From contig CM102289.1 in NCBI GenBank assembly GCA_046563655.1, positions 7,502,001 to 7,566,000 of the forward strand: a DNA stretch of 64,000 nucleotides, written 5' to 3'. Numbering within the stretch: position 1 is the stretch's first letter; each line of letters starts with the position of its first letter. This stretch comes from Yuukianura sp. NJ FZ-2021. Lineage: Eukaryota. Below, piece after piece: positions 5,390 through 57,804 of the stretch. The notes below the pieces were generated by a model. It had not been told where the DNA came from. It made no database searches and saw only the letters and a list, made by a program, of their open reading frames with translations. A program made the translations under genes and the position numbers.

Positions 5390-6073
5390 ATGGATCGCGG
5401 ACTGTCAGCATTCGTTTTTGGTGGAACTGGAAGTATTGGTGGAGGAATTGTAAAGGCGTTGGCGAAAGAACCGAAGTTTTCCAGGGTCATGCTTTTTGGG
5501 CGAAGGAAAATCCAATTCCCAGAGGCCTCTACCGTACCGTCAGAAGACTATTCAAAATTTGAACAAGAAACGATTGATTTTGAAAATCTTAACGAACTCA
5601 GTCCGAGTCAATTTGAGGGCTACGACGTTGGGTTTTATGCTCTGGGCGTCAGTAGTGCCAAGGTTGATGAAGCCACTTACCGAAAAGTGGAACATGACTA
5701 CACAGTGACAATTGCTGGACTTGTCAAGGACGCTGGATGTCCCCATTTCAACTGGGTCAGTGGTCGTGGTGCAGATAAGGACTCTTGGTTTCTATTTGGA
5801 AAGGTCAAGCAACAAGTTGAAGAAGAATTGAAACAAATTGGATTTCCAAGACTATCAATTTTTCAACCCGCGGCAGTTCTGAATGCTGACTGTCGAATTG
5901 GACTCTGCCTGTCAAAAACCTTGGACAAAGGTCACAAAATATCTATTGATAATGAGAGTTTGGGAAAGGTCATCGTGGGCAATGCACTGCAGAGGTCAGA
6001 GGGATCAGAAATCCTGACAATGGCTGACATTGCACGACTTGAAAAAGATTTTGAGCAAAATTTAAAAAATTAA
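5390..6073 (+). CDS. HTATIP2: HTATIP2/TIP30/CC3-like NAD(P)-binding oxidoreductase (atypical SDR)
   Basis: AFVFGGTGSIG Rossmann motif, DVGFYALG, YRKVEHDY, GADKDSWFLFGKVK, IGFPRLSIFQP. Confidence 0.8.
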   Translation: MDRGLSAFVFGGTGSIGGGIVKALAKEPKFSRVMLFGRRKIQFPEASTVPSEDYSKFEQETIDFENLNELSPSQFEGYDVGFYALGVSSAKVDEATYRKVEHDYTVTIAGLVKDAGCPHFNWVSGRGADKDSWFLFGKVKQQVEEELKQIGFPRLSIFQPAAVLNADCRIGLCLSKTLDKGHKISIDNESLGKVIVGNALQRSEGSEILTMADIARLEKDFEQNLKN

Positions 6074-8193: not shown

Positions 8194-9743
8194 TTAAGCC
8201 TTTTGGAGGCCTTGGTGGGAGTTGAAGACGTTGATTCGGCCATGTCCGAAAGCATTGTTGGGGAAAACAGTTTCATCGATTCCACCGCAGTTTCGTCCGC
8301 TTGAGACGAGATCTCCGTTGTCAACACCCTTGATCAGTGCTTCCTTGATTCGATCGTAATTCAAGCTTCCGTCACTAGCCAACAACAAGGCAGCAGCTCC
8401 GGCGACGTGTGGGCAAGACATGGACGTTCCTAAAACAAGTCGTAAGATATTAAAACATTTCTCATTCTAAGTAATTCAATGGGATCTAGAAACTATTCTG
8501 TATTGATTCGTAGGTGTACCTGAGATGGTATTGTAGCCACCGTCATTCCATGCAGAGTAAACATCTTCTCCTGGAGCAGAAACGTCTGGTTTGATGAGAC
8601 CGTTGACTGATGGGCCCTTGGAACTGAACGTGCTAATTTGTTCATCGATGTTGGTACTTCCGACTCCAATGACGTCTGGACTGTCTCCTGGAGAGTTGGC
8701 AGTTCCGCAGAATGGTCCAGCATTTCCGGCAGAGAAGACTGGGATAATGCCAGAGACGTGCCAAGTGTTGATGACGTCAGCGTAGAAGGTGTCTCCTTGG
8801 CCACCTCCCCATGAGTTGGAAACGATGTGTGGAGCTTTGCTACAGTCTGGGCTGTTTCCGTTGGGCAAATGTGGGCATTCGATGAATTCACCACAAGCGA
8901 TGAGAGAGGCCGTGGAACATCCAAACCGAGCACATCCCAAGCAGGCAATCCATTCGGCTCCTGGAGCGACACCGATTCCGTTAGCACCAGCGATGGTTCC
9001 CATGGTGTGCTATATGAAAAGAGTTTCCATGATTTCAATTGTTCGTAAGAAATGATTAACCCAATTTATATAAAATATGATTTTGGGCTTACGGTTCCAT
9101 GTCCGTTGACATCTTCTGGCTCTGGTAGTTTATTGTATGGATCATACCAGTTGTAGGTGCTGCGGAAGTTGCCGGCAAGATCTCGATGGGTGTGTAGAAC
9201 TCCAGTGTCAATGTTGGACACGACTACGCCAGCTCCATCATTTCCTTGTTCCCAAACCCGATGAGCCTCAATTCGTTCAATTCCCCATTGGTTAGCCAGT
9301 GGCTTAGCAACGGCGTTGTTGCCCTTGGTGACGGTTGGGAGTGGAAGGATGACTTCTTCAGTGATTTCTTGGACTTCTGGGAAGGCTTTCAAGGCTTCGA
9401 CGAGGTCAGCGTTGGCATTCTTAATGAAAATCTTGTTGGTGATCCAGAAGGCTCGGACGTCTGGTTGATCAATGCTCTTCAAGTAGGCCATGACGTGTTG
9501 TTGAGTCTTGCGGGTATGTTGTTGAAGGGCATGGACAACTCCATTGATACGGTCTTCTCGGTTGGCAAAGGTAGTCTTGGATACTTCGTCAAGGGTCTTG
9601 GTAGTTCCTTCTTTGAACTCAACGAAGATGTTGGCAGTGCCCTTAGTTCTCAGCGTTCGGCGGAGAGCTGGATCGACGTGGGCAGATGGAGCTGCGAAAG
9701 CTCCTGCGACGAGAGCCGCGACCAGGAGAATACAAACCTTCAT
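8194..9743 (-). CDS. Secreted S8 subtilase, bacillopeptidase F-like; exons 9743-9093, 9009-8520, 8429-8194
   Basis: Signal peptide and prodomain. Catalytic triad IDTG, NGHGT|HTMGT and SG|TSMSCPHVAG is restored across two GT-AG introns. Also SNSWGG, SAGNAG, IKPDVSAPG. Confidence 0.92.
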
Positions 9744-11837
9744 GATTACCAAAAATTTTCAAAAAAAACTTCGGCTGTACTCTGTCCAATTTTCGGACAG
9801 CATTTTATACCCTTCAGATTATGCTGGAGTCCGATTCGAATGACGCAGAAGTCATTTGACTTGGTATTGCCACAGATTGACAATCTAAATCCATATCAGA
9901 TTTAAACGTGTAATTGATTAGTTTGGTTTAGCTGGATTTGGAAAGATGATTTGGAAAATCCAATTTGCAAATTTTTAAGTGTTTTTCTCATTTTCCATGA
10001 ATTTTGGCAATTAAATTGCTGATTAAGCAATATTTTCGTTAAAAAATTGCTAATTGCGCAAATATTGCAGCAGAAATGGTTGATTAAAAATGGAATTTTG
10101 AGTGTCCATGATTATTGAGTGACAAGACAATGAACAGTGACAACATACGACGAAATTCCTAATTCAAGTGCTCACTGTAAATGCTATACATAGTTTTGAA
10201 TTACGAAAAACATGTTTTTGGAAATGTTGGAATTTTTATGAAAAACATTGGGTTTGTGGTCCTTGACGAATGCTTACGTCCGGGCATTGTTTCCTGGTCG
10301 TATGATATGAGCTCGATCCCACTGCGGTTTTTTTTTGCGACATTGCGACATTGGCAAACTATTTTAAATGGTCAAAATAGTTTGACCAAAAAGTGAAAAG
10401 GTCATCAAATGAAAATATCAACTATTTACAAACAGTATTTAGGTTTGGTGAGTATAGGTTTTCTATGATTGATCTTCTCACCTTCTGACTAAATTGTTTT
10501 TTTGGCTATATTACATTGAATGCATTAGCGATAGCTTTGGATTTTCTTAGATTTCAACTTTTGCCAACAATGTTCTGCGTTAAAACACCACTTTATGTCA
10601 AAGGTTCCAGGGAATTGTCACGTAAAGTTCGCATGCTCGGCGCATGTTGATAAAAAATAACATTAACGAAATCACTTTAACGGTGGTAAATGTTATGCGT
10701 CTGTTTTTTGCTATCAAGGCAGGCGTTCAAAGGTGAATTTCAAAATTCTAAAGTTAATTTTTTTTCTGCGTAGTTGAATCTGAGGTTTCTATATGTAAGT
10801 TTAAAAATTTTCAAAAACTTTAGTCAATCTTTAAAAAAAAGAAGGGAAAGTCTGGTGAAAGGTTTAGTAGGAAATGGAATATTTCAGGAAAATCAAAACT
10901 TTGGAAAACTTTTTTTTTATTCTCAAGGATGAGATAGTTTTGAGTGATTTTTTGTTTTGCGTAGACGAAAACTTCGCTGAAACGCTTCGCCTTGTGCAAT
11001 CGCAATCAAGTAGCATTCTTTATTTCTTTGCTGATTCCAAAGAATACTACTTACTACATGGACGAGAAATTCTAAGAATTCAATTAACGACATTCAAAAA
11101 TTCTAACATCAAAATTATCCAAAAATTGTGACTATGAACGAAACTTTCCAAAAATGCATACTATGAAATTTTCTAGAAATTCTAACGAAACATTCCGAGA
11201 ATTCTACCAATAGTAATAATTACTATTATTGTTGAAGTTAATTAATACTTCGGAATTTTGACTTTTATGATTGTTTGCAATGGGTGGCGCCTGGTGACAT
11301 GTTTAGCAATTAGTTTGGTGTAGAAATAAGCAGTGATTGCGATACCGGTCCCCGTGATTCCATTTTGTACTTCCAGGAAATTGATTACTCCTGTTAAGAA
11401 TTTTTTGGAAACATTTTAAATTAACTTTTCTGATGGAATTTTTGAGATTACAGGCTCCGTAAAATTAAATCCATTTGATCTCCACTTATGGGTGACATGC
11501 CGCTTCAAACGCATTGTTTTTCATATACTTGACGTTTTTTCAAAAGCGGACTTGCGTTAATCTTCACGGGGACCTATTTTAAAATGATTAGATACACGCT
11601 TCTAGATGTTGTTTTTCTAAAAAGCTTTTCAAGCTCTTGTTGCCTTGTTATGCCCAAAAAATTATCTACCGGCGGATCCTGATTAGTGTCAAGGCCGGAA
11701 TTAGTTCCAACACTTACTATTTTTCACCAAAAGTTTCAAGTGTTGCTCAACTAATTAGGCCAAACCAAGTCCAAACTTCGCTGAGCTTCAGTCAAGTTAG
11801 TTGTAGTCTTGCTTTTTGATTTTTCCAAAATTTCAAA

Positions 11838-13784
11838 ATGTCTGCAAAAACTGAAAACCTTCAAAACATCAAACCTGCTGACCCCGTTCAAAACGGGAAT
11901 GCCACAAATGGTTAAAAATTTCATAACTAAAGTCTCTCATAAATTTTTTGTCAATTGGAATTTCAAAATTTGCAAATTTTTGTTTTTAGGAACAAATGGA
12001 GCATTTGCTGATACGCATCCAAGATGGTCGAGACTTTTAGAAAAAAATGCCCTCATAGGACTCAACAACCGTCTTGCAGGAATTATTGACAGAAATCGTC
12101 AACTAGAAAATGAAAATGTCCACTTGACCGCTGAGGTAATTCATTGCACTTTCACAACAAAATTTTTATAAAATTTTGACAAAAAAAATTTTTTTTTGTT
12201 CTCAGGTGAAGACTACTGAAGAAAAATTGCAATCCGTCACACACACACTCAAAACCACTTTCGAAAATGAAAATAAAGAACTTCGGAAACAATTGGATGA
12301 AGCTGAGAAGGACAAAGCAAAATTGATCTTGTCCGAAAAAAATGTGCGCAACAAGTTGAAAGACACTGAAGAAAAGTAAATTAAAATTGACCTAAATTTA
12401 AAAAATTTTAATTTGTTTTTTAAATTTTTTATTTTCAAAATTTCAGATTGAAGAAGCGAGAAGATGAAAATGCCAAGACCCAGAAGGATTTGGATTTGAC
12501 CAAAATCAAAGCCAAAAAACTGGAAGAAGAATTGAAAAAAGAGAAAGACGATGCTGCCAAACTCGCAAAAGAGAAAGCCGAAGTTGAAGATGAGAACCGG
12601 AAATTGAAACAAGAAAACGAAGATTTCAAAAAATTCAATGAAGAGCATCTTTTGGTCCAAGTTGAACTAAAAAATGCTCTCAAAAATAAAACCGAGGAAC
12701 TTGCAATCAAAGCGGTCGTTCATGAAAAGGAAATCAAAGCAATCAATACCCACACGGAAACGTTTATTCAGAAAATCGGAGAAAAGGCCAAGAAAGACTT
12801 TGCTAAAAAACTGGAAGATGCCATTCTGGCTCTGCGCAAAGACTGTGAGCGTCAGATGGACAAAAACAAACAAGAGCAAGATCAACTTCATCAAATGAAG
12901 GAAAAAGACCTCAAAGCTCAAATTGCCAAATTGAACGGAACTCTCAAAGAGAAAACAATTGAAATTACGAACATTACTGTCAAGGTTGAAGATGCAAATA
13001 AGAAAATTGCGGAATTGGAGGGCGCCAAAGTTTCATTGGAGAAGAAGGCCAAAGATGCAGAAGACAAATTGGGCAAAGCAGACGGCAAATATGCCAAGGA
13101 ATTGAAGGAAAAGGAGAAAGATTTGAAAGATCTCCAAGATGAAAAAGAGAAATTGATTGGAGAATACCAAGACCTTATGGAAATTAAAGTTGCATTGGAC
13201 AATGAAATTGCTACTTACAGAAATCTTTTGGAAGGGGAAGAAGAAAGGTATGAATTTCTTAACAAAAACTTAAAAATTTTCAAAATTTTTGCTTTTATTT
13301 TCAATTTGTGCTTTTCAGACTTCAAATCGTCATCGATGAAACCAAAGTCAAGAAAGTCGGAGAACAGCAAAAAGTCGGAGAACAACAAAAAGTCGGAGTA
13401 CAACAACCGCAACCAGCCGAACCTGCTAAAAAAGTCGGAGAACAACAACCAAAACCAGCCGAACCCGCTAAGAAAGTCGGAGAACAACAAGCACAACCAG
13501 CCGAACCTGCTAAGAAAGTCGGAGAACAACAAGCACAACCAGCCGAACCTGCTAAGAAAGTCGGAGAACAACAACCAAAACCAGCCGAACCTGCTAAGAA
13601 AGTCGGAGAACAACCAAAACCAGCCGAACCTGCTAAAAAAGTCGGAGAACAACAAGCACAACCAGCCGATCCTGCTAAAAAAGTCGGAGTTATACAACCA
13701 CAACCAGCCGAACCCGCTAAGAAACCCGAACCTGCTAAGAAATTGGAGGAAGCTGGCGTGAAGAAGGAAGCCCCCAAACAGTAG
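11838..13784 (+). CDS. Lamin-type intermediate filament protein with repetitive tail; exons 11838-11910, 11990-12135, 12206-12375, 12447-13247, 13319-13784
   Basis: Coil 1A SRLLEKNALIGLNNRLAGIIDRNRQLENEN and IF end consensus [29 protein letters not shown]. All four introns are GT-AG and phase-compatible. Confidence 0.88.
13350..13745 (+). repeat. Coding tandem repeat, ~42-bp unit (KKVGEQQ[AP][QK]PAEPA), about 8 units plus partial units
   Basis: Repeated aaagtcggagaacaacaagcacaaccagccgaacctgctaag. Confidence 0.95.
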
Positions 13785-14131
13785 ATTTTTGAAAGGCACT
13801 AAAATTTAGTATTTTAGAAATTCGGAACCACAATTTCTGAAATTATAATAAATACTTTCTTAACTAGCTTCATTAATTAGATTAATAATCCATTCAATTC
13901 TCAAAAAACTGCTTCTGCATGACTTGTTCATTCAAAAATGAAGCTTTTTCAGGATGACCTTGAACGACCCCATTCGTCACTTTCATTTCCTGCTGTGCCT
14001 GTGTTCTAGGGAAGTTCAGAGCAAAGGCGACAAAAAATTTTCTCGAAATGTTGTCCTCCCAATCAAAAAAACTGTTCCACTTCATAAGAAAAAAAATTGG
14101 TAAAATTATGGAATTTTTATTTTGACTCTAA

Positions 14132-14552
14132 CTATTGCTGCTTTGAGGTCGTAAGTCCAGCATGGGGATCTTAGCAAAAATCAGATGCATATATTTTCGG
14201 AAATATGGTATTATCCAGGTCCATTTTTGAAAATTATGAAATTTCTTCTCTGAAGGCCCTATAGACCCCTGATAGTAAAAAACAAAAAAAAATTCAAAAA
14301 AAATGTTTCCGGAAATAATATTTGATTTTCAAAAAAGCATTTTTTTCTTCAAAATTTCGAAAAAATTTTTAAAAATTTTTGTCCAATATGGATGAAAATC
14401 GGTTTGTAGACTAATTTGGCGATGCTGAATACGGTTCTGAAAGAATTTTTCAAAAAAAAGTCAAACCTAACCTAACTAACGTAACCTAACCTTTACTACC
14501 CTAGGGAGGCCCCAGTTTGCACAGGAAAAAGATTAGCTCGAAGCAGCAATAG
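14132..14552. mobile_element. MITE with ~16-bp TIRs and TAA target-site duplication
   Basis: TAA|CTATTGCTGCTTTGAG ... CTCGAAGCAGCAATAG|TAA, with an internal AACCT-like tract at ~14465-14492. Confidence 0.7.
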
Positions 14553-15666: not shown

Positions 15667-17160
15667 ATGGGCTGTGCGACGTCTTTGGTCAAGTACGTGG
15701 TGTTCCTGTTCAACTTCATCTTTGTGGTAAGTAATTACTTTGTGATTAGGTAATTACTTAGTAATTAGTGGGATATTTTCGGAAAATTTTCATGTTTGAT
15801 ATGTTTCAGATTGTTTGAGTATAGCACGAACATATGAGAGTATGCTATACATGCGTAGTAGGATTGACTAAACTAATTTCTGCTCATGCGTACATTTTTT
15901 AGGTTGGCGGGATTGCATTAGTGGTCCTTGGAGCCCTTACGTACACAAAATTTGAACAGTACGATGATCTTGTGGCAAGTTTGGGATTGGCGGGATTTCG
16001 CGGCCCGCCAATCGCCATGATGGTTGGCGGAGCCATTGTGTTTTTCATTGCTTTTCTGGGATGCTGCGGAGCTATTCGAGGTAAAAACACCATTTTTTAG
16101 AAAAAAAATAGTGTTCGATGACTTTTTTTTTATGTATTTGGATAATGATTCACGTCAAGGAAGTGATTGACTAATTAACGCGTTTGTTGGTTTTGTTATT
16201 TTTTTTTTGGAACAGAAAACCACGTCATGATGTCCAGCGTAAGTTAGCGCGGCAGCCTTTGAAATTTTTTATGACTAAATTTGCGGTAGAGTGATTCTTA
16301 GAATTCTTTTTTGTTTTAGTATGGAACGATTCTCACACTTTTGCTGATTTTGCAAGTCGCAGTTGTCGTCGTGATTGCCTTGAACAAAGATGATATTGAA
16401 AATGCACTTCAGACGGGTTTCAAAGATTCAATGCAGAAATATGGCGGACCAGAAGAAAAAGATAAGGAAATCACAGCCACTTGGGACAACATGCAGGAAA
16501 CCGTAAGTAAAAATAACTTCAGCAAATAACTTTTAAAATTAAGCGCTACCTTACGACCGTGCTCAGAAGTCACACTTTGGCATGACATTTGAATCTTTCA
16601 GTTCAAATGTTGCGGAACAACGTCGTACCAGGACTGGAGCCAGATTGGCAAAAATGTGCCGGCAACATGCTGCCAAGCTGGAAAGGATTCTTGTCCAGGA
16701 GGCCTTCCATTTCCAATTGAAAATACGGATCGAATCTACACAGAGGTATGATTCATGATAGTTAAACTTACTAATTAAACTTAAATTTAACGTTAACATA
16801 ATTTTTAATTTGGAACTAACATAGCAATTAACATTCAATTGATGTAAGTCCAGTTGAAGGTTTAACTGCAAAGAAAATTTTGCTCGTCAAAACTAGTAAT
16901 TATTTTTGTAGTTACTTTCCTTGAACATATTTGGGTGACGTCAACGTCGACTGAACAAGGTTAAAGGTCAAGAAATAATGCTAATCTTGTGACTTTTTTT
17001 TTTGCAATGTTAGGGATGTTACGAGAAGGCTCTTCACGACATTGGAATCCCACTGTTGATTGCCATTGCAGCTGGAATTGGCGGAGTTGAGATGTTGGGC
17101 GTCATCTTTTCCTGTTGCTTGGCAGCGAGATATAAAAACAAGGCTTACCGTCCACGATAA
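15667..17160 (+). CDS. Tetraspanin (CD63-like), 6 coding exons
   Basis: MGCATSLVKYVVFLFNFIFV, IAFLGCCGAIR, FKCCG, VPATCC, GCYEK and C-terminal IFSCCLA. Confidence 0.9.
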
Positions 17161-17922: not shown

Positions 17923-19149
17923 ATGAAGAGCTTGGGTTTTGGTACAACTTTTGTCAAGTACCTTCTATTCATTGTTAACTTTTATGTTTCGGTAAGTACC
18001 TTACGAATCTTAAATTTACTGAACAAATAACTTTAGTTTTTATTAATCAGTACAAAATCAATAAAATAAATTTTGAATATTTTAGTTTTACAAACTATTC
18101 TATTGAATATTTGGAATTGGGTTTGTAGTTTGGTGGATTCATGATGATAGTGGGTGGCATCATGTCGTTAAGCTTGCTTCAGAACTACGATGGAATTATA
18201 TCTAGTTTTGGAATCGGATACCGTGGACCAGCAATCGCCATGATTGCTTGTGGTGCTTTGATTTTTGTCGTTGCTTTTCTTGGATGCTGGGGCCCTTTTC
18301 GCGGTAAAAAGAAATTTTGAACAAATTTTGAACATCACTAGAAATGTAAAAGCCAACTCTTTTTTTTTATTTTAGAGAACCATACGATGCTGTCCACGGT
18401 ATAATGCAATCGTTCGATTTAGTTGTAAAATATGATCCATGAATTATCAATGTTTTGTTTTGTTTCGTTTTAGCATGGAACGATACTTGCCATTTTGGTT
18501 ATTGCACAAATTGTAGCCATTATTGCAGTGGTTCTGGTTACTTCGACCAAGGTTAAAGATGATTTGGAGGAAAGACTCAGAGAGGGATTCCGGAACTCCA
18601 TGTATAAATATGGACATGACGAAGAAGTAACGACAATGTGGAATTCTCTTCAGGTTACAACTTGATAGAGTTAATCAAAGCAGATTTTACGACCGTTATT
18701 GCAAAAGTTTTCAACGCTTGATTCTGTAGCGTGAAGTCGGATGTTGTGGAACAACGTCCTATGCTGACTGGTACACCGTTGCTAAGTCAGTTCCAGCATC
18801 CTGTTGCAAGGATTACTCTATGTGTCCAGTGAACCAAACATTGGGCGGACTCCAATTCACTGTCAATACGACGCTAATTTACACACAGGTAAAAAATTCA
18901 TTTTATTGAAAAATTTTCGAAAAAACTGGAAAGAAATCTTACAAAATCGTCCCCAATTTTTTTTTTACACAACAGGGATGCTATGAGGGAATTCTAGACC
19001 AAATCAAAATTCATGTGAAACCGCTCATTCCGTATATCGTTTTTGGCGTACAAGGAATAGCGTGTTTGAGTATCCTGCTTGCTTGCTGCTTGGCAACCAA
19101 ATATCGACGTTTTAGAACCGAGGACAAAATGAATTTGCTGCAGGAATAG
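17923..19149 (+). CDS. Tetraspanin, divergent tandem paralog, 6 coding exons
   Basis: FVKYLLFIVNF, VAFLGCWGPFR, VGCCGTTSYADW, VPASCC, GCYEG, LACCLATKY. Exon layout parallels the upstream paralog. Confidence 0.85.
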
Positions 19150-36552: not shown

Positions 36553-39108
36553 TTACTTGTACGTCAGCGGCTTGACTGTTGTCGTGTAGATCTCCGATGC
36601 TGCTGCCATTGAATCTCTTTCATCCTGTCTTCTATGGACATGCAAATGAAGCACCAAATTTTTGTTTTTGTCAATTCCAGTTGAAGGGCCGCTGGACTTT
36701 CCAGCGTTTCCAGCGACGCTGGGACCTGGGCTGGAACTCACCACGGGATTGGATAGCATCGGAGGCCTTTGTGTTTGCACTTGCGTCTGCGTCAAATAAG
36801 TTTCTCTGGGAGGCGGTCCATGTGGGAATGAATCAAATCGCTGAATGTAATTTCCGTAGGTGTGAGGTTGGCGATGAGGAATGGGAACTCCATACTGCTG
36901 TAGAATTGGCGGTGGCGTTTGGATTCTGGCCGGTTGTGGCGAAAACGTTGGCGGCATAGCTTGGTAGCTGTAGTGCCGATCACTGCTAACAGCACTTGAG
37001 ACAGCAACTGGCGGTGGATTATTGGTATTTTCGTTAGGGTAAATGTGTATTTTCATTCTCATGGGTGCTGGAGGCGGAGCTAACTTGGTGGATGGAAGTG
37101 GTTGGTAACTTGGCAACGGTGGAGGTGGTGGTGGTGGATACTGCTGAGAAGGAGGCGGTGGATATGCTGGCACATAGGCTGATGGAACGCTTGTGGCTGA
37201 TACTGCCGCTAACGTCTCAGCTTCTAGCTTTTTCTCCAAGTATTCTAAGTATAATTTTTGAAGTCGATTTTTTCTTTCCCGCTCTTCGCGATCGGGGTCA
37301 TGCGCATGAAACATAGGAGGGGGTGGGGGTGGTGCGGTGGCGGATGACGGCGGGGGTCTAAACACACCCCCACCCGTATGGATCTCTATGATATCTTCCA
37401 TATCTGGTGGTGGGGGTGGAGTCACTGGACGAGTGTATCCACTGCGTTGAAACGATGGACTACTGTGGGAATGAGCATGGTAAGGAGCATACGGCTCATG
37501 CCCATCAGCGTTACTTCTGTGTTCTTTTGAATCCCACCCTTGATTAACGCGTTTCCCGCCATGACGATTGTGTCGGTCTCCAGAAGATTTGTAGTGTCCA
37601 TAAGGTTGTTTGAGCAGTATAGGAGTGGTTGTCGTACCGCGAATTCTAGCTTCTCGTGGATCCTCACCGTATCGATGATTTCTGTATCGATCATCCGCGT
37701 CATCTTCTTCAGGACTTCGGTCGTCACTGTTTCCCGGTCGGTACGAACCGCTTGCATACCGATGATGTTTCGTTACCGTCTGACTTCCACGAGTTTTTTG
37801 ACGGTTGTGCCGCTCTTTTTCAATTTCTTCTGATTCTTCAATATGCTGACGCTGGCGCGTACTTTCAAAATTTTGAGTTTTGATTCTGCTGTGGTTAGGT
37901 TGTCGAGAATGTTTAGTTCCATAGCGTTCTCTACTTGCATGATTTTTGCGAATTCGGTCTTCGTCGTCATCATCCAGATTCTTGTCTGATCCGTCTTCAT
38001 CTTCATACCGATAACGCGGTTTATAAGAAATTCGTTTCTCTTTTTCTTCCGAAGACTCCCGATTCCATCCGAAACCTGACTGTTTCGTCGACTTGTAAGT
38101 TTCTTTCGTATTTGGTCTATTTCTGATCATTTCTCTAACCGGTTTGGCTTTCGGTTCACTTTCGTCCGCATCATCTTCATCATCATCATCTCGCTCTTTG
38201 TATTTTTCGGTTTTGTGACTTCTTTTGGATGGTGGATTTAGCGTTGTAGTCGGCGCCTGCGTAGATTCTTGTGTATTTCGCATATTCATGCTTGGTCTCT
38301 GCGCAAACTCTCTAATGTCCTTGAGAAGCGAGGTTTGAACATCGTGAATTTCTTTTGAAAAATCACCGCCCATTGACACTTGACCAAGATCTGGCGGTGA
38401 GTGTTGCGGAGGAGGTCGAGGACGTACAGCTTCTTGCTCTTCTTTCTTGAAGTAGGTCAAAATGTCTTGAATGTTGGCAGCATCTTTGGGGTAACTGTAA
38501 CTAGGTTTTTGTGGATAGTGGGGTACTCGTTTTGCATGATCGCTTGACAAGGGTAGGGGAATTGGAGGTGGCCTTGGGCGGGGAGGGGGTCCGGGGTGAC
38601 TTAAGTGTCTGGAAGGTGGTGGACCACCGTAGCGAGAGGGGGCCCTTCGTCGCGGCGGTGGAGGTTGAGGACGTCGGCGCCGTGAAAGTGGATTCCGAAA
38701 CCGTGGATAGTTAATGGAGCCTTCTTCGGGCGGTAGGTCGCCGTCGTCATAGTCGTCAGATGGAGCAGCATACAGAGGTTCACGTGGAAATAAGTGACGC
38801 GTGAAAAATGGTGACCTCTTGACCCGGGTTCCCCCGTTTGAGGTCGAATTTGAGTCTAATGTGAAAGTCAAATCTCGAATTGCACTTGGAACACTTCTCA
38901 ATTTAGGAAATTTTTTGAAACTTTCCAAAAATTTTGGACTAGACACATTAAAACTTTTTGATACAACATTTTGGCTACTTTCACTGCGTCCAATTTTTTC
39001 ACTACAGTTGAACTTTGCAGAAAGACTTACACCGATTAGCAGCACAAGAACGACGGTCGGCATGAACTGAAATGACCTTGACCTTTGATTCGCTCCTGAG
39101 TGACCCAT
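36553..39108 (-). CDS. Large secreted Pro-rich low-complexity protein, single exon
   Basis: 851-codon ORF with signal-like MPTVVLVLLIGVSLSA, RVKR furin-type site, and Pro-rich and charged blocks. Confidence 0.8.
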   Translation of the reverse strand: MGHSGANQRSRSFQFMPTVVLVLLIGVSLSAKFNCSEKIGRSESSQNVVSKSFNVSSPKFLESFKKFPKLRSVPSAIRDLTFTLDSNSTSNGGTRVKRSPFFTRHLFPREPLYAAPSDDYDDGDLPPEEGSINYPRFRNPLSRRRRPQPPPPRRRAPSRYGGPPPSRHLSHPGPPPRPRPPPIPLPLSSDHAKRVPHYPQKPSYSYPKDAANIQDILTYFKKEEQEAVRPRPPPQHSPPDLGQVSMGGDFSKEIHDVQTSLLKDIREFAQRPSMNMRNTQESTQAPTTTLNPPSKRSHKTEKYKERDDDDEDDADESEPKAKPVREMIRNRPNTKETYKSTKQSGFGWNRESSEEKEKRISYKPRYRYEDEDGSDKNLDDDDEDRIRKNHASRERYGTKHSRQPNHSRIKTQNFESTRQRQHIEESEEIEKERHNRQKTRGSQTVTKHHRYASGSYRPGNSDDRSPEEDDADDRYRNHRYGEDPREARIRGTTTTPILLKQPYGHYKSSGDRHNRHGGKRVNQGWDSKEHRSNADGHEPYAPYHAHSHSSPSFQRSGYTRPVTPPPPPDMEDIIEIHTGGGVFRPPPSSATAPPPPPPMFHAHDPDREERERKNRLQKLYLEYLEKKLEAETLAAVSATSVPSAYVPAYPPPPSQQYPPPPPPPLPSYQPLPSTKLAPPPAPMRMKIHIYPNENTNNPPPVAVSSAVSSDRHYSYQAMPPTFSPQPARIQTPPPILQQYGVPIPHRQPHTYGNYIQRFDSFPHGPPPRETYLTQTQVQTQRPPMLSNPVVSSSPGPSVAGNAGKSSGPSTGIDKNKNLVLHLHVHRRQDERDSMAAASEIYTTTVKPLTYK

Positions 39109-41093
39109 GTCCTCTTACACCAATTCTTAGCAACATGGAATTTTCTTAGAAAATTCAATTCCAAAAATTAGCAAACTTTTTTAAAATAAATTTTGCATAA
39201 AGAATTCGGATTGGAAAATACTTGCTAAAATGCGATAGAATTTTTTACCAAAAACTAAAACTAAACGTCTCAACTACACATTGTTGTTCAGAGAAAAAGA
39301 AAGAAGTGTCCGTGTAACCGTAAAGTAAGTCCAACAGCTACTGAATGAAACTTTGTTAAAACTGACACATTTTCTGATGAATGTGAAAATAAGCGAAGTA
39401 CGAAAGTATCAAAACGCCTCCTTTTTTCAAAGGACGAAGATCCAAATTATATCACTTCCCCTTTGAGAAAATAATTGTTGAACTCGCTTTTGGAATGAAG
39501 CCTGCTTTTACTTATTCTTTTTAAAACTAATCTTGATCGTTCCACCAACTTGACACACTCCCTTAAATATACTTTTCTTATTAAAAATATGTGTTTTATA
39601 GGTTAGTTTCAATCGCAATTAACCTAACCCAACCACAAACTTAAAAAGTAAGGAACGAGGAAGAAATTTTCCAAGAATAAAACTTTAGAACGTTCTCGGT
39701 AACATACTTTCGGAGTGTTGCCTGAGTGTAGCCATGGGCAGCCTACTGAAACATATTAGTTACAAGTTACAACACCTGAAACTGAAAATATGCTTTCATG
39801 ACACGGATGTTGATTGAAACTGTTCCTGATGCAGAAAATTCCTGATGCTGCTACAAACTGTGGTCAGGGAAATGCAATTTCCAAGCGAAAGTGGTTTCCC
39901 TCCCTCTTAAGTTCTTTTCCCACTCATAACTTAAACTGTCAAAACACATTTCATCAACATTTTAAACTTGACGGTGCAAAAAGGCTTGACATTTTGGCAA
40001 TTTTTTAACAGCAATTCAAAGCAAATTCCATTTTGGTAAATCCGTTTCAAGTGCTGATGATGATGACACTGTGCAAATTGACTTTAAACCAATATTGACC
40101 AAAATGGACAATCATGAGAAGGTGATTGATGCGAGAATTCGTACAATACTGTACAAATAAAGTGTGAAATTTTTATGACTTTTGCTAATGATTTTCTATT
40201 TTTATCACTCTTTAGTTCAGGAATGACTTAAAAAAGAAGAAATTTTTGGTACATTGGATTACAACATTATTGGAAAGTTTTCTATTGGAAAACTTTCAAA
40301 CTTTCTTTAATATTAAAATTTTGGAGAGTTGCATTGATCATAAAAACGTAACTTTTTTGGAGAAATTGGACCAAGATTTGTGTGGGATAAAGTGCAATTA
40401 GAGGAGGATTAAGTACGAATGTGAATTGAAACAAGTCAATTAGGACGAAAAAACATGAAATGAGCAAAATGAGTGTGCGCAGAAGTGTGATTGTGTGGGC
40501 GGGATTCTTTGAAATTTTTGAATCAAGTGTTAATGAGGTCAGTAGATGAAAACTAATTAAACGAAATTGGTGAGGCGATGATTCTCTTTACAGTAAAACT
40601 AGAAATAAAAATTGAAACGGCTTCTTGTCCTTATTTCTCTTTTGTAAATTCTATTTTAATTTTGAGTTATTTATTTTTTTTTACCTGTTTTCCCATTTAG
40701 TTTTTATTTTTGTTAATCTCAGCATATAATTTCTGAATCAGTGATGCAGAAATGATTGGATTGAAGTTAAAGTAGCTTTGGAAGCTGACTCAAAAGAAAG
40801 TAGTGAAATTAGCAATGTGATTTTAATTAAATGTAATTAAGAAATCAAAGGTGTTAAAATCATTTCACATTTTGTTACAAAGCTGACTATTGAATTACAT
40901 TTGTAACCATAGAAACTCCTGCGCTCTCTTCACTTTGTTATTGCTTCTGAAACGTAAACTCATCATCAGTAATTCAAATATTACATTGCATTGGTTCAGT
41001 CATTCTCTGCTTTTGAATTCGTTTTCTTTTCAATCAATTTTGAATTCAGCAGGAGCGTTTTTGTTTTTTTTTTAAACTTTGGAATTTGAAAAA

Positions 41094-46456: not shown

Positions 46457-47767
46457 TTAGTTATAGCCGATGCTGTTTTGATCACCGTCAAAGTGTGACT
46501 GGCTGCCGATGTTATGGTTAAGAAGTGGCTCCCATGTTGTTCCGTAGTGCTGTGACTGCTGTCCTACTCCATATTCATAACCTGATTAAAATGATTAGAT
46601 TTAATTAAGAATAAAATTAGTTTAGATTTTAAATTTACCAAATCCCGGATTATGATGGTGAGGTGGCGGTGGTGGGGCATAGCCTCCGTGGCCACCTACA
46701 AATCCTTGACCATGTGACTGCTGGTGACCGAATCCGTGGAGCTCATTGATTGGTGCATACGAACTCGCATGCCCATGTGACTGTTGATGCCCGTAACCTT
46801 GGAAATGCTGTTGCTGGTGTCCATGAGGATTCATTTGGTAGCCTAGCCATTGGCTGTAAGGCTCCGGTTGGTGTCTGTGTCCTCCCCCTTGACCGTGACC
46901 GTGACCGTGACCTCGCTGCTGTTGAACATAACCGCCGTGTCCATGCCCATGACTCTGGGATTGGTGGAATCCGTGACCGTGGTTATGCACTTGCTGATAA
47001 CTTTGACCACCGTGACCGTGGCCGTGAGATACTGACGGCAGCCCGTATCCCGTTTGATGATGTCCATGACTTTGCCCGTGACCATGGCCGTGCGATACTG
47101 CCGGCAGTCCGTATCCCGTCTGATGATGTCCATGACTTTGTCCGTGACCATGGCCGTGCAATACTGGCGGCGGTCCGTGACCGTGGCCGTGCGATATTGG
47201 CGGCGGTCCGTATCCCGTTTGATGATGTGGATGACTTTGTCCGTGACCGTGACCGTGCGATACTGGCGGCGGTCCGTATGTCGTCTGATGATGTCCATGA
47301 CTATGTCCCTGAACATGGCCGTGCGATGCTAGCGGCAGTCCGTATCCAGTTTGATGATGTCCATGACTTTGTCCGTGACCGTGACCATGAGAAGACTGTT
47401 GCCCGTAACCTGGTTGTTGATGTCTGTGACCTCTGTGACCTTTCTGGTTTCCAAATCCAACTCCGTGTGAGGCATGCGCCGATTGAAGTCCAAGCCCATG
47501 ACCATACGCTAGGTGATGTCCTTTTCCATTTGGACTGTCCTGAATTCCGTATCCATTTGCACTGCCGTGACCTTTGCCATGTCCACCACCACCACCTTTG
47601 ACAGAATTGGACTGAGATCCATGCAGACCGTGGTGACCTGCCGCTGGGGTCAAATCATTCTTCTCTTCTTTTTCTTTCTCAGTCTTTTTTGGTTTTTGCT
47701 TTTCAGAAGGCGCAGACGCAGCAATTCCTAGCAGCGCTAATAACAGAATCAACTCCCTCACTTTCAT
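46457..47767 (-). CDS. Secreted His/Gly-rich repetitive protein (cuticle-like); probable short second exon ~46581-46457
   Basis: Signal peptide, DLTPAA spacer, and ~22-aa repeats HGHGHGQSHGHHQTGYG(L/P)P(P/A/S)VS. Donor TTTG|gtaaat and acceptor aatcag|GTTATG give GYEYGVGQ...IGYN*. Confidence 0.85.
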
Positions 47768-48989
47768 TCTGAAGCTAATTCAAAACTAAGAAAGTGAAAG
47801 TCACAAGTCTCTTTTATAACAATTTCAATTCACAGTGATTACATGCATCTATTACTCGTAAGTGTTTAGACCGGAACTATTGTTCCGCTTTGAAAGAGAA
47901 ACGGAAGGAATGATCCGTGTTTGCGTTACGTGTTTAGGCTTTGCAATAATGCCAAAGTCCTTACAACCTAGCTTAACTATGTAAGTCCACAATTCAATTA
48001 GTTCAGCTTTACAAAGCTCTGATTTCCCTAATTATAAAAACATTGAGCAGAAAAGTAGTTGTGGATTGACTCATTTCATATTTGTCTTTCAAAATAATTG
48101 CAATTTCAGTTGAACTTCGACGTCGTGAATCGAAAAAAATAGACAAAATGACAGCAGCGACAATTTGGGGCATTGCAAGGAATTTCCTCTGTCAGCCATT
48201 TCTCATCTTCCTGTCACTTTTGCCCCATTTGAGCAAATGTCAGAACGATCTCATTTGTAAACTAATTTAAATTATGTAAGTTTTTGTAATACAATAGAAT
48301 TCAGTGTAATCTTAAACAAAATCTTGCTCCTAAAAAAATTACTTTATACTTGCGTAATTTTCTTTCGTATCTTGCTCCGAAGCAGGTCAAAAGCACGAAT
48401 TTAACAATCTGGCAACACTGCAACTGAACTTTTTTTTTTCTAAAACGTTGAGTAAAATTCAAACGATTTCGTCTTCCTGAGATCAAAATGCTTAACGCTG
48501 ATACTTAAGTTTCAAAATCACGTTTTAGAATTTGGCTTATTTTGTGACACGCTTTTGATGTTGAAATTGTGTAAAAATTTTGATGGTACATTATGTAGAC
48601 TGCATTCTACATATGTACCATCATGTAAAATGCTTGGTTATGAAAGATAATATTTTCTATAGTATGACCTTTGAACGTTTGATTTGATAAAATGAAGTAA
48701 CAAGTCACATAAATGACCTTTGAAGTATCAACTGAAGTTGAGACTGTTGGATTTGCTTTCCCTATCTTTCATTGTGTCGTTAGTAATGTGACAATGGTTC
48801 CTCATTACATATTTGGAATTATTCATCAACATAGGTGAAATTCGGTGTGTCGTCATTAGTATACATATTAGACATAAGTCATAGAAGCAATGAGGAACTT
48901 AGCTTAACAAATTTTGAAAATTAGGTTCACTGTGAGTATCTTCTAGTTTTTTTTTCGAAAAAGGCTAAAGTTGTTTGAATTTGACAAGA

Positions 48990-55830: not shown

Positions 55831-57804
55831 ATGTCGCCACTTTTGAAAACGTTTCTACTAGCTACTTGTCTTCGGTTTTTTAGTTCATGTGAGGCAGTTA
55901 GTGGTGGAAATGATGCACGTAAGTTAATTGAAATTAAAATTAATTTAAGTAATTACTAATTAGAACTAACTAATGACTTTATTAACTTGCTTCTGTTCAT
56001 AGGCGAAGAGGAACTTCTCTCTCCTGATTGTGTCAATCCTTTGGGAGAATATGGCTACTGCTTCGCACTGATCAAATGTCGCAGTCTCTTTCAAATTTTG
56101 AAACAGAAACCTATGAATCATCAATCACTTCAGTTTTTACAAAAATCAAGTTGCGGATTTGCTGAACGCCGTATGCCTAAAGTATGTTGCGTTGATGAAG
56201 ACGACATTGAGGGTTGGCGATCTTCAAATGTCAAGGTCACTCAAGGTCACGCCGAAACTCCTGAGGTCACGCCACCACCTCCAACGACAACTACAACTAC
56301 TACGACTACCACTACCACTACAACGACAACACCAAAGCCATTGCCAGTTATTCCATTTCAAGCGGCTACAAATTCCAGTGCAACGCTTCCAGTTGCTTAT
56401 AGTCTTAGCACAATGATGAAAAGACGTATCCGACGTCATCCCTATTTTAGGCTCCTCCCTACGACAGACATTTGTGGTTTGTCTATTACTACGGAAGATC
56501 GGATAATCGGAGGAAGAGCGGCAGAACTCGGAGAATTTCCATGGATGGGATTGATAGCTTACAGTATGTGCTGCCAATTGAAGTAGCTTTAAGTTAATTA
56601 ATTGAAATCTTTAATTAAAATAATAGAGTTTAACTGACTTTGGCTTTTCTCAGGTGACCCCGAAGGAGGAGAACCACAGTTTGCTTGTGGTGCAAGTTTG
56701 ATTTCAACGTTGTACGCTGTGACAGCAGCTCATTGTGTCAAACAATTGCCGAAAGGATTCAAAATGCAGGAGGAAAATTTAAATTTTTCTATTGGTTTTT
56801 TGAAAAAGAGAATTTTGACCTGTGTTTTCTTTATGTGTAGTGTTTTCGTGCGGTTTGGTGAGTACGACCAAGCTCACTCGGAAGTGGATTGCGTCGACGA
56901 CTTCTGCGCAGATCCGGTTCAGGACATTGAAGTTGAAGAGGTCATTGCGCATGAAAACTATGATGTCACAGGGAAGAAAGAAAATGACATTGCACTTCTG
57001 CGGCTCAAACATGCAGTCAAACTTGGAAGTAAGGAATCTTTAATATTTTTAAGTTAACATTTTATTATAATTTTTGGTTTGAATTGCTAGCTTTTGCTAG
57101 TCCAATTTGTCTTCCATTTGCACTGGACCTAAAGTCAGGAGATGGATCTTTAGAAACAATTTCAAAACTCACGGCAGCTGGATGGGGACGCACAGTTTTT
57201 GGTAAGCTGTTCCAAAATTTTGGAAAAAATAAAGTAAAATTTCAAAAACTTTGATTTTTTTTTTCAAAATTAGATGAACCAGACATGGCTTCGATACTTC
57301 AAACTGTGAGGATTCCATTAGTTTCAAAAGCGGAATGCAACGAATACTACACAACTAAGGTCAAACTGAGTGGCATTGATGATTCAAGGGTAACAAATTT
57401 TTTTTCTAAAGATTTGAAAAAATTGTCAAGCATCAAACGTCTTAGCTAATTTGGCTTGAAGTCAATTTTTGATTTTATTTTCAAGTTTTGTGCCGGTGGG
57501 GAAGAAGGAATTGACAGTTGCAGAGGAGACAGCGGGTAAACATTTTTGTCAATTTTTACCAAAATTTTGCAGGAAACAAATTTGGAAGAAACTAAATTTT
57601 TGAACATATTTACGCAGGGGACCATTGATGGAGGCCCTGCCAATTCCTGATCCAAACAATCCCAATTCCCCGCCAATTGTTCGAACTTTTCAATTTGGTG
57701 TTGTGTCGCTTGGACCATCGCGATGTGGCACCAAGGACCAACCAGGACTCTACACCAAAATTAGCAACTATCTCATTTGGATTCTGGATAACATTCGCCC
57801 ATGA
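55831..57804 (+). CDS. CLIP-domain serine protease (easter/PAP-like)
   Basis: Signal peptide, CLIP CVNP..GYC..LIKC..SSCG..KVCC, Thr-rich linker, activation site EDR|IIGG, and TAAHC, NDIALL, GDSG|GPL. Confidence 0.92.

Follow-up and report, generated by a model that had tools for sequence, protein, structure and literature searches.

An intermediate filament gene of five exons

The window analysed here is a stretch of 64,000 nucleotides from Yuukianura sp. NJ FZ-2021 (NCBI GenBank assembly GCA_046563655.1, contig CM102289.1, positions 7,502,001 to 7,566,000 of the forward strand), with a GC content of ~36% and short introns, and all coordinates given below are counted from its first letter. 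On its forward strand, at 11838-13784, lies a gene for an intermediate filament (IF) protein. We consider it probable that this protein is descended from a lamin, whose full rod length and both assembly motifs it has kept and whose nuclear localisation signal (NLS), lamin tail domain (LTD) and CaaX box it has lost, and that it would form cytoplasmic filaments as a member of a family that also contains the Folsomia candida protein named 'Lamin Dm0'.

The gene has five exons, and its spliced coding sequence of 1656 nt holds a single stop codon, which is terminal, and encodes a protein of 551 residues (62 kDa); the coordinates, strand and content that an earlier reading of the same DNA (hereafter, the original prediction) had assigned to the gene are exact. 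The start codon ATG lies at 11838, with an in-frame TGA at 21 nt upstream, and the last nucleotide of the stop codon TAG is 13784. The four introns measure 70-79 nt each and have GT donors and T-rich acceptors ending in AG (TTTCAG among them). Exon 1 (11838..11910) contains the start codon and the first 24 head codons (MSAK...) and ends in phase 1, and exon 2 (11990..12135) contains the remaining head and coil 1A with the helix-initiation motif (EKNALIGLNNRLAGIIDRNRQLE). Exon 3 (12206..12375) covers the end of coil 1A, the linker and the start of coil 1B and ends in phase 2, exon 4 (12447..13247) encodes a long lamin-type coil 1B and then coil 2 through the helix-termination motif, and exon 5 (13319..13784) encodes the entire tail of 155 residues and the stop. 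At its start, the spliced protein aligns from residue 3 on to a cDNA-like relative (L003, discussed below). On the 3' side, an AATAAA polyadenylation-signal hexamer at 13847..13852 (+), 63 nt beyond the stop, is the only AATAAA or ATTAAA within 13701-14400. We also note an open reading frame (ORF) of 445 residues at 12424-13761 (+), in which the frame of exon 4 stays open across intron 4 and the tail repeat is then read in a second frame; both minus-strand frames across the repeat are likewise open. Retention of intron 4 would give a different long tail; the spliced form is favoured, since the start of its tail is homologous to the tails of relatives.

Rod and tail of the encoded protein

Exon 4 alone (267 residues) matches the Pfam Filament family (PF00038) at E=1.2e-30 over profile positions 57-313 of 313, its 107.7 bits exceeding the cut-off of 40, and the segment in exon 2 (profile positions 2-32, E=3.1e-5) falls under the cut-off when scored alone. 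A comparison with solved structures returned 17 chains at E<=0.01, headed by vimentin (8.9e-15) and then by fragments of lamin A/C coil 2 (2e-11). Both IF consensus ends are present, with the helix-initiation motif LNNRLA in LNNRLAGIIDRNRQLE and the helix-termination motif at the opposite end of the rod. The span from the first L of LNNRLA to the final E of LLEGEE is 347 residues. The same span is found in 27 of the 37 LTD-bearing homologues that have both motifs (from a set of 186 homologues, 80 of which have both by our own regular expressions), and short-rod (vertebrate-type) IFs measure 297-304 residues. Aligned over 356 columns, the rod shows 0 gaps against the complete lamins P0014 and P0012, with identities of 31.5% and 31.7%, respectively, which bears out the predicted lamin-type rod with both consensus ends and shows the predicted length of 356 residues to be exact. 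The isoelectric point (pI) of coil 2 is ~5.2.

The rod is under purifying selection. Compared with the closest relative (L001, a genomic locus described below), the proportions of nonsynonymous (pN) and synonymous (pS) differences are 0.182 and 0.757 (the latter saturated) in exon 4, 0.175 and 0.761 in exon 3, and 0.230 and 0.497 in exon 2; pN far below pS argues against a decaying copy. As a separate observation, a Ser/Thr-Pro site preceding coil 1A is kept in lamins, in P0024 and P0025 and in the Folsomia protein (P0005), and is absent from the window protein (THPRWSR; 11990-12060) and from L001 (PTHRFSR; L001 100-170).

The tail is 155-156 residues long, has a pI of 9.5 and a net charge of about +8 over 155 residues, and ends in KKEAPKQ*. 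It is composed of only 12 residue types, dominated by K (18.7%), Q (16.1%), P (15.5%), A (14.2%), E (12.9%), V (9.7%) and G (7.1%), and is without any aromatic residue, Cys, Ser or Asn. Tandem Repeats Finder resolves the region 13353..13724 (+) of the tail exon into an 18-nt unit repeated 3 times (13353-13406) and a 42-nt unit repeated 8.1 times (13389-13724) with 90% matches. The 42-nt unit translates to KKVGEQQ(P/A)(K/Q)PAEPA, and the resulting 8 tandem copies of 14 residues make up most of the tail. A Pfam scan of the tail gave no match of note, its sole row having E=0.66, and the window protein is unmatched by an LTD hidden Markov model (HMM) that we built from the tails of 13 homologues bearing PF00932, the Pfam family of the LTD, although the same HMM flags 70 of the 186 homologues. 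There is no CaaX box at the C-terminus. As for a classical NLS, no run of four basic residues occurs anywhere in the protein and the tail has no K-K/R-x-K/R match; the only such matches, at residues 160 and 329, are in the rod, and matches to the bipartite rule are likewise confined to the coiled coil. In all three lamins checked (P0014, P0012 and P0007), KRKR is located ~27 residues past the rod, a basic cluster that is absent from the window protein. The tail is thus as had been predicted, made of repeats and, by Pfam, the LTD HMM and the motif rules, empty of an Ig-fold LTD, a CaaX box and a clear classical NLS.

A rod that is wholly lamin-like and aligns with lamins without gaps could also belong to a nuclear or nucleoplasmic lamin variant, which would rely on a non-classical signal or on co-assembly with a canonical lamin to reach the nucleus, or would enter it after mitosis. 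The K-K-x-K matches within the rod are compatible with such a protein, and so is the nuclear location reported for tardigrade lamin-1, which is without a CaaX box (PMC4829535; here and below, this paper and PMC3065449 are cited from excerpts). However, tardigrade lamin-1 retains both an NLS and an LTD, neither of which the window protein has, the basic cluster that follows the rod in the lamins checked is missing, and those excerpts describe as cytoplasmic both the one collembolan relative that has been characterised and the LTD-less protein of tardigrades. A nuclear variant is thus improbable in our view, and we prefer to read the protein as a cytoplasmic IF.

Relatives and phylogenetic placement

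A word-indexed search among proteins of 469-2000 residues gave 16 matches, of which 13 have PF00932. The best match is the 'Lamin Dm0' of Folsomia candida (P0005; 519 residues, 42% identity), which has PF00038 only and is mislabelled. Among proteins of 146-468 residues, the same kind of search gave 25 matches, the top 11 of which are metagenome/Logan proteins with identities of 33-69%, all with PF00038 and without PF00932. An exhaustive HMMER search against 1.84 billion representatives returned 844 matches at E<=1e-3, including 9 at E<=1e-30, a metagenome scan returned 31 loci, and the ESM Atlas returned generic IF clusters only. The LTD-less family members P0005, P0006, P0027 and P0030 are labelled at source 'Lamin Dm0', 'myosin heavy subunit' and 'chromosome segregation ATPase', and these public names hide the LTD-less family.

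Three of the loci bear directly on the structure of the gene. The genomic locus L001 is 68% identical to the window protein over exon 4 and 70% over the rod, and a second genomic locus, L002, is 54% identical. The window, L001 and L002 have three introns in common, which follow exon 2 in phase 0 and exons 3 and 4 in phase 2. The terminal exons of L001 and L002 encode 27 and 24 residues before the stop, respectively, and the repeats of the window tail are not present in either. The third, L003, is a cDNA-like contig without introns, on which a single block of similarity covers window residues 3-409 and the reading frame stops after a tail of 26 residues. The contig has an AATAAA in its 3' end and, being continuous, indicates that the LTD-less form of at least one relative exists as an uninterrupted coding sequence. 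The start and the end of the tail appear alike by eye in the window protein and L001, with the common ending G-x-KKEA-x-x-Q. Given that the tails of the relatives are only ~24-27 residues long, the repeat looks like an internal, lineage-specific and recent expansion in the lineage of the window. Comparison of L001 and L002 with the window by tblastx detected no synteny beyond the IF gene.

Searches for tail-domain exons near the gene were negative. Four LTD-bearing lamins and two LTD-less relatives, used as tblastn queries against the 64-kb window at E<=1, matched only at 12022-13401, i.e., the rod. Pfam found no PF00932 in 55 ORFs of at least 100 residues across the window (the other 25 of the 80 window ORFs overlap the IF gene or lie opposite to or overlap longer ORFs), nor in all 84 forward-strand ORFs of at least 35 residues between 13.7 and 24 kb. 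The next forward-strand genes 3' of the IF gene are two tandem tetraspanins (15903-17157 and 18129-19146), followed by an EamA/SLC35 transporter. These results bear on whether the gene model is incomplete, with LTD or CaaX exons elsewhere, or represents a decaying lamin copy, as might be argued from the frame of exon 4 being open through intron 4 into the repeat (12424-13761) and from the splicing and 3' end being predictions from sequence. The lack of a detectable LTD in the 64 kb, the polyadenylation signal after the stop, the unrelated nature of the next forward-strand genes, the like endings of L001, L002 and L003, one of them on an intronless contig, and a frame that is intact over five exons with pN far below pS all stand against this explanation and make it exceedingly unlikely; we thus take the five-exon gene as complete and intact.

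Phylogenetic relationships were obtained from a quick tree of 67 rods and from a careful IQ-TREE analysis of 49 rows and 356 columns under LG+C20+F+G4 with posterior mean site frequencies (PMSF). From the latter, short-rod, long-branch and near-duplicate rows were dropped and to it P0055 and P0059 were added; in both trees the L001 row holds one intron-derived extra residue as an insertion column. The two trees agree. In the 49-row maximum-likelihood tree, the window protein falls into an LTD-less clade of 13 rows (support 100/99) that includes L001 and the Folsomia protein. P0014 is placed as the sister of all 13 rows, again at 100/99, and is a complete lamin that has KRKR, an LTD and the CaaX box CVIA. 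The window protein and L001 group at 100/100 within a nine-row subclade (99/97) that holds the Folsomia group. The LTD-less clade has at least two deep subclades, P0055/P0058/P0059 and the other ten rows, and in the 67-row tree the LTD-less assemblage is nested among onychophoran and spider lamins. The claim of a lamin-derived IF in an arthropod thus stands, given the clade shared with 12 other LTD-less proteins including that of Folsomia, the complete lamin as sister and the arthropod-type genes in the window.

The original prediction left a choice between a relative of isomin, an IF protein of the collembolan Isotomurus maculatus, and an independent re-invention of a cytoplasmic IF. Of the two, a relative of the collembolan proteins is favoured. 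A separate re-invention would mean that the tail was lost independently in a lineage unrelated to springtails, and could draw on the fact that only one member of the clade is named and on a separate second LTD-less clade (P0164, P0095 and P0184; also P0119) beside another CaaX lamin, P0076, which implies that such tail losses occurred more than once. The window protein lies, however, inside the subclade holding Folsomia, and independent re-invention is thus not supported; the support for the entire LTD-less clade and the intron positions common to the window, L001 and L002 point the same way. We give this explanation hardly any weight, and regard the window protein as a member of the family that includes the Folsomia protein. 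The clade of P0164, P0095 and P0184 may correspond to the lamin duplicates reported in copepods by Hering et al.

Among the other genes of the window, a CLIP-domain serine protease (CLIP and Trypsin fragments) at 55960-57054 (+) supports an arthropod origin. Further Pfam-positive genes are a GMC oxidoreductase, BTB genes and a SET/MYND gene, which together with the CLIP protease we take to be an arthropod-type gene set. A nematode origin, to which the TTTCAG acceptors and the GC content of 36% might point, is rejected on account of the CLIP protease and the affinity with arthropod lamins. For a neighbouring gene at 5390-6070, the only named match is fungal, with 34% identity. Each of the two tetraspanin genes downstream of the IF gene consists of four Pfam-positive exon fragments. 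A subtilase (Peptidase_S8) gene at 8476-9758 (-) comprises two ORFs with a short intron-like gap and a signal-peptide-like start; its 2-kb bin has 44.8% GC against ~36% around it, and the gene may have been horizontally acquired. Two ORFs match no Pfam family: one of 385 residues at 46622-47779 (-), with a signal-peptide-like start and long His/Gly-rich repeats (HGHGHGQSHGHHQTGYG-type) in a bin of 44.8% GC, and a single open frame of 853 residues at 36553-39114 (-), which is very proline-rich and has acidic and basic stretches.

Predicted cytoplasmic filaments and comparison with known systems

Based on general IF biology and on isomin and cytotardin, the window protein would be expected to dimerise as a parallel coiled coil and the dimers to polymerise into filaments. 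As there is neither an NLS nor a farnesyl anchor, such filaments would remain cytoplasmic, like isomin, whose published location is the midgut terminal web, and would stiffen epithelia. The proline-rich polyampholyte repeats of the tail most likely form a disordered side-arm projecting off the filament. The repeat tail would not be core to the function of the family, given that L001, 70% identical over the rod, is without the repeat, and any function for it is speculative.

Several points weigh against this interpretation. The case for a cytoplasmic IF is a prediction from sequence, and the NLS rules and the LTD HMM are simple tests of our own, which leaves room for a non-classical import signal. 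The repeat tail is absent from the closest relative. The 49-row tree is unrooted and only six of its rows have names; within the clade, Folsomia candida is the only species name, so that 'springtail' is deduced from grouping with it. In composition, eight rows of this tree deviate from the rest in being Lys/Glu-rich; the window protein and several LTD-less relatives are among them, and this bias could inflate their grouping. Of the phylogeny that the original prediction had envisaged, with lamins, isomin and cytotardin, the part with lamins was run and places the LTD-less clade beside the lamin P0014, and isomin and cytotardin are not among the compared sequences.

Arthropods were long held to be without cytoplasmic IFs, and the exceptions described in the excerpts, namely springtails, copepods and tardigrades, all re-used a lamin copy (PMC3065449, PMC4829535). 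Lamin-derived cytoplasmic filaments in springtails are already published (PMC3065449, PMC4829535), and the gene is a further member with the repeat tail as a minor variant; nothing is overturned. What it offers is a cleanly resolved genomic example, in which the exon structure is laid out, intron positions are conserved and no exons for a tail domain lie near the terminal exon. The family is also larger and far better conserved than isomin, the single characterised protein, would suggest, and the recent eight-copy repeat tail of the window protein provides a naturally occurring variant in which to study the role of IF tails. We found no description of the repeat-tailed form or of the breadth of the LTD-less family in the literature searched, though the supplements of both key papers, which lie outside that search, may list the sequences; lamin and IF proteins go unmentioned in the main text of a proteomics paper on Folsomia. 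A broader reading, which we put forward tentatively and think possible but less than even in its chances, is that springtail-like hexapods have an old and diversified family of cytoplasmic IFs with canonical rods, distinct from the divergent isomin, as a multi-gene system rebuilt from lamin, and that the window lineage equipped one member with a disordered repeat side-arm of neurofilament-like kind. The evidence for this reading is the presence of at least two deep subclades in the LTD-less clade.

The closest characterised protein to weigh is isomin itself (Mencarelli et al. 2011, PMC3065449), which the excerpts describe as a cytoplasmic protein of 411 residues, located in the midgut terminal web, capable of self-assembly in vitro and without LTD, NLS and CaaX. 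Hering et al. 2016 (PMC4829535) place isomin among other collembolan transcripts inside arthropod lamins, with bootstrap support of 70-74, a view shared by a 2025 preprint, and also report lamin duplicates that have no NLS in collembolans and copepods. The link between isomin and the present family comes from that placement. The collembolan transcripts grouped with isomin may be the present family, and isomin and the window protein are alike in being arthropod IFs with a long coil 1B and without LTD, NLS and CaaX, all of which could make the window protein the orthologue of the Isotomurus terminal-web protein. The published description of isomin, the only basis of this comparison, departs from the window protein in many respects: 411 vs 551 residues, a head of 13 vs 40 residues, a degenerate coil 1a and a weak YRKLLEGEE vs intact motifs, a two-residue stutter gap vs no gap, a pI of 8.8/9.4 for coil 1b/2 vs ~5.2 for coil 2 of the window protein, a Gly/Ser-rich tail with an Arg-Pro stretch vs a tail without Ser, and a lamin identity of 24-25% vs 31-32% over the rod (PMC3065449). 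The window protein thus shows none of the published peculiarities of isomin, and the Arg-Pro stretch is found in 0 of 195 collected proteins. Furthermore, the Folsomia protein has canonical motifs, and Folsomia and Isotomurus belong to the same taxonomic family. Strict orthology with isomin is thus doubtful, and we rate it as unlikely, favouring instead membership in the LTD-less family that includes the Folsomia protein.

Cytotardin of the tardigrade Hypsibius dujardini (PMC4829535) is comparable in being a lamin-derived IF protein without NLS, LTD and CaaX, and has been shown to be cytoplasmic, but differs in its reported origin, which according to the excerpts was independent and within tardigrades. 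Canonical lamins such as P0014 and the Eoperipatus lamin P0012 have a KRKR NLS, a PF00932 Ig-fold tail and a CaaX box, none of which is found in the window protein, and yet they share with it an identical, gap-free rod length, the same end motifs and 31-32% rod identity. The nearest likeness is to the 'Lamin Dm0' of Folsomia. The two proteins differ in their flanks, since the Folsomia head has 137 residues and its tail 36, against 48 residues before the motif and a repeat tail of 156 residues in the window protein, and their rods are 43% identical. They are alike, however, in having PF00038 only, a motif span of 346/347 residues, the ends LNxRFA/LNNRLA and ATYRKLLEGEE, no LTD or CaaX box, and a place in the same 99/97 subclade.

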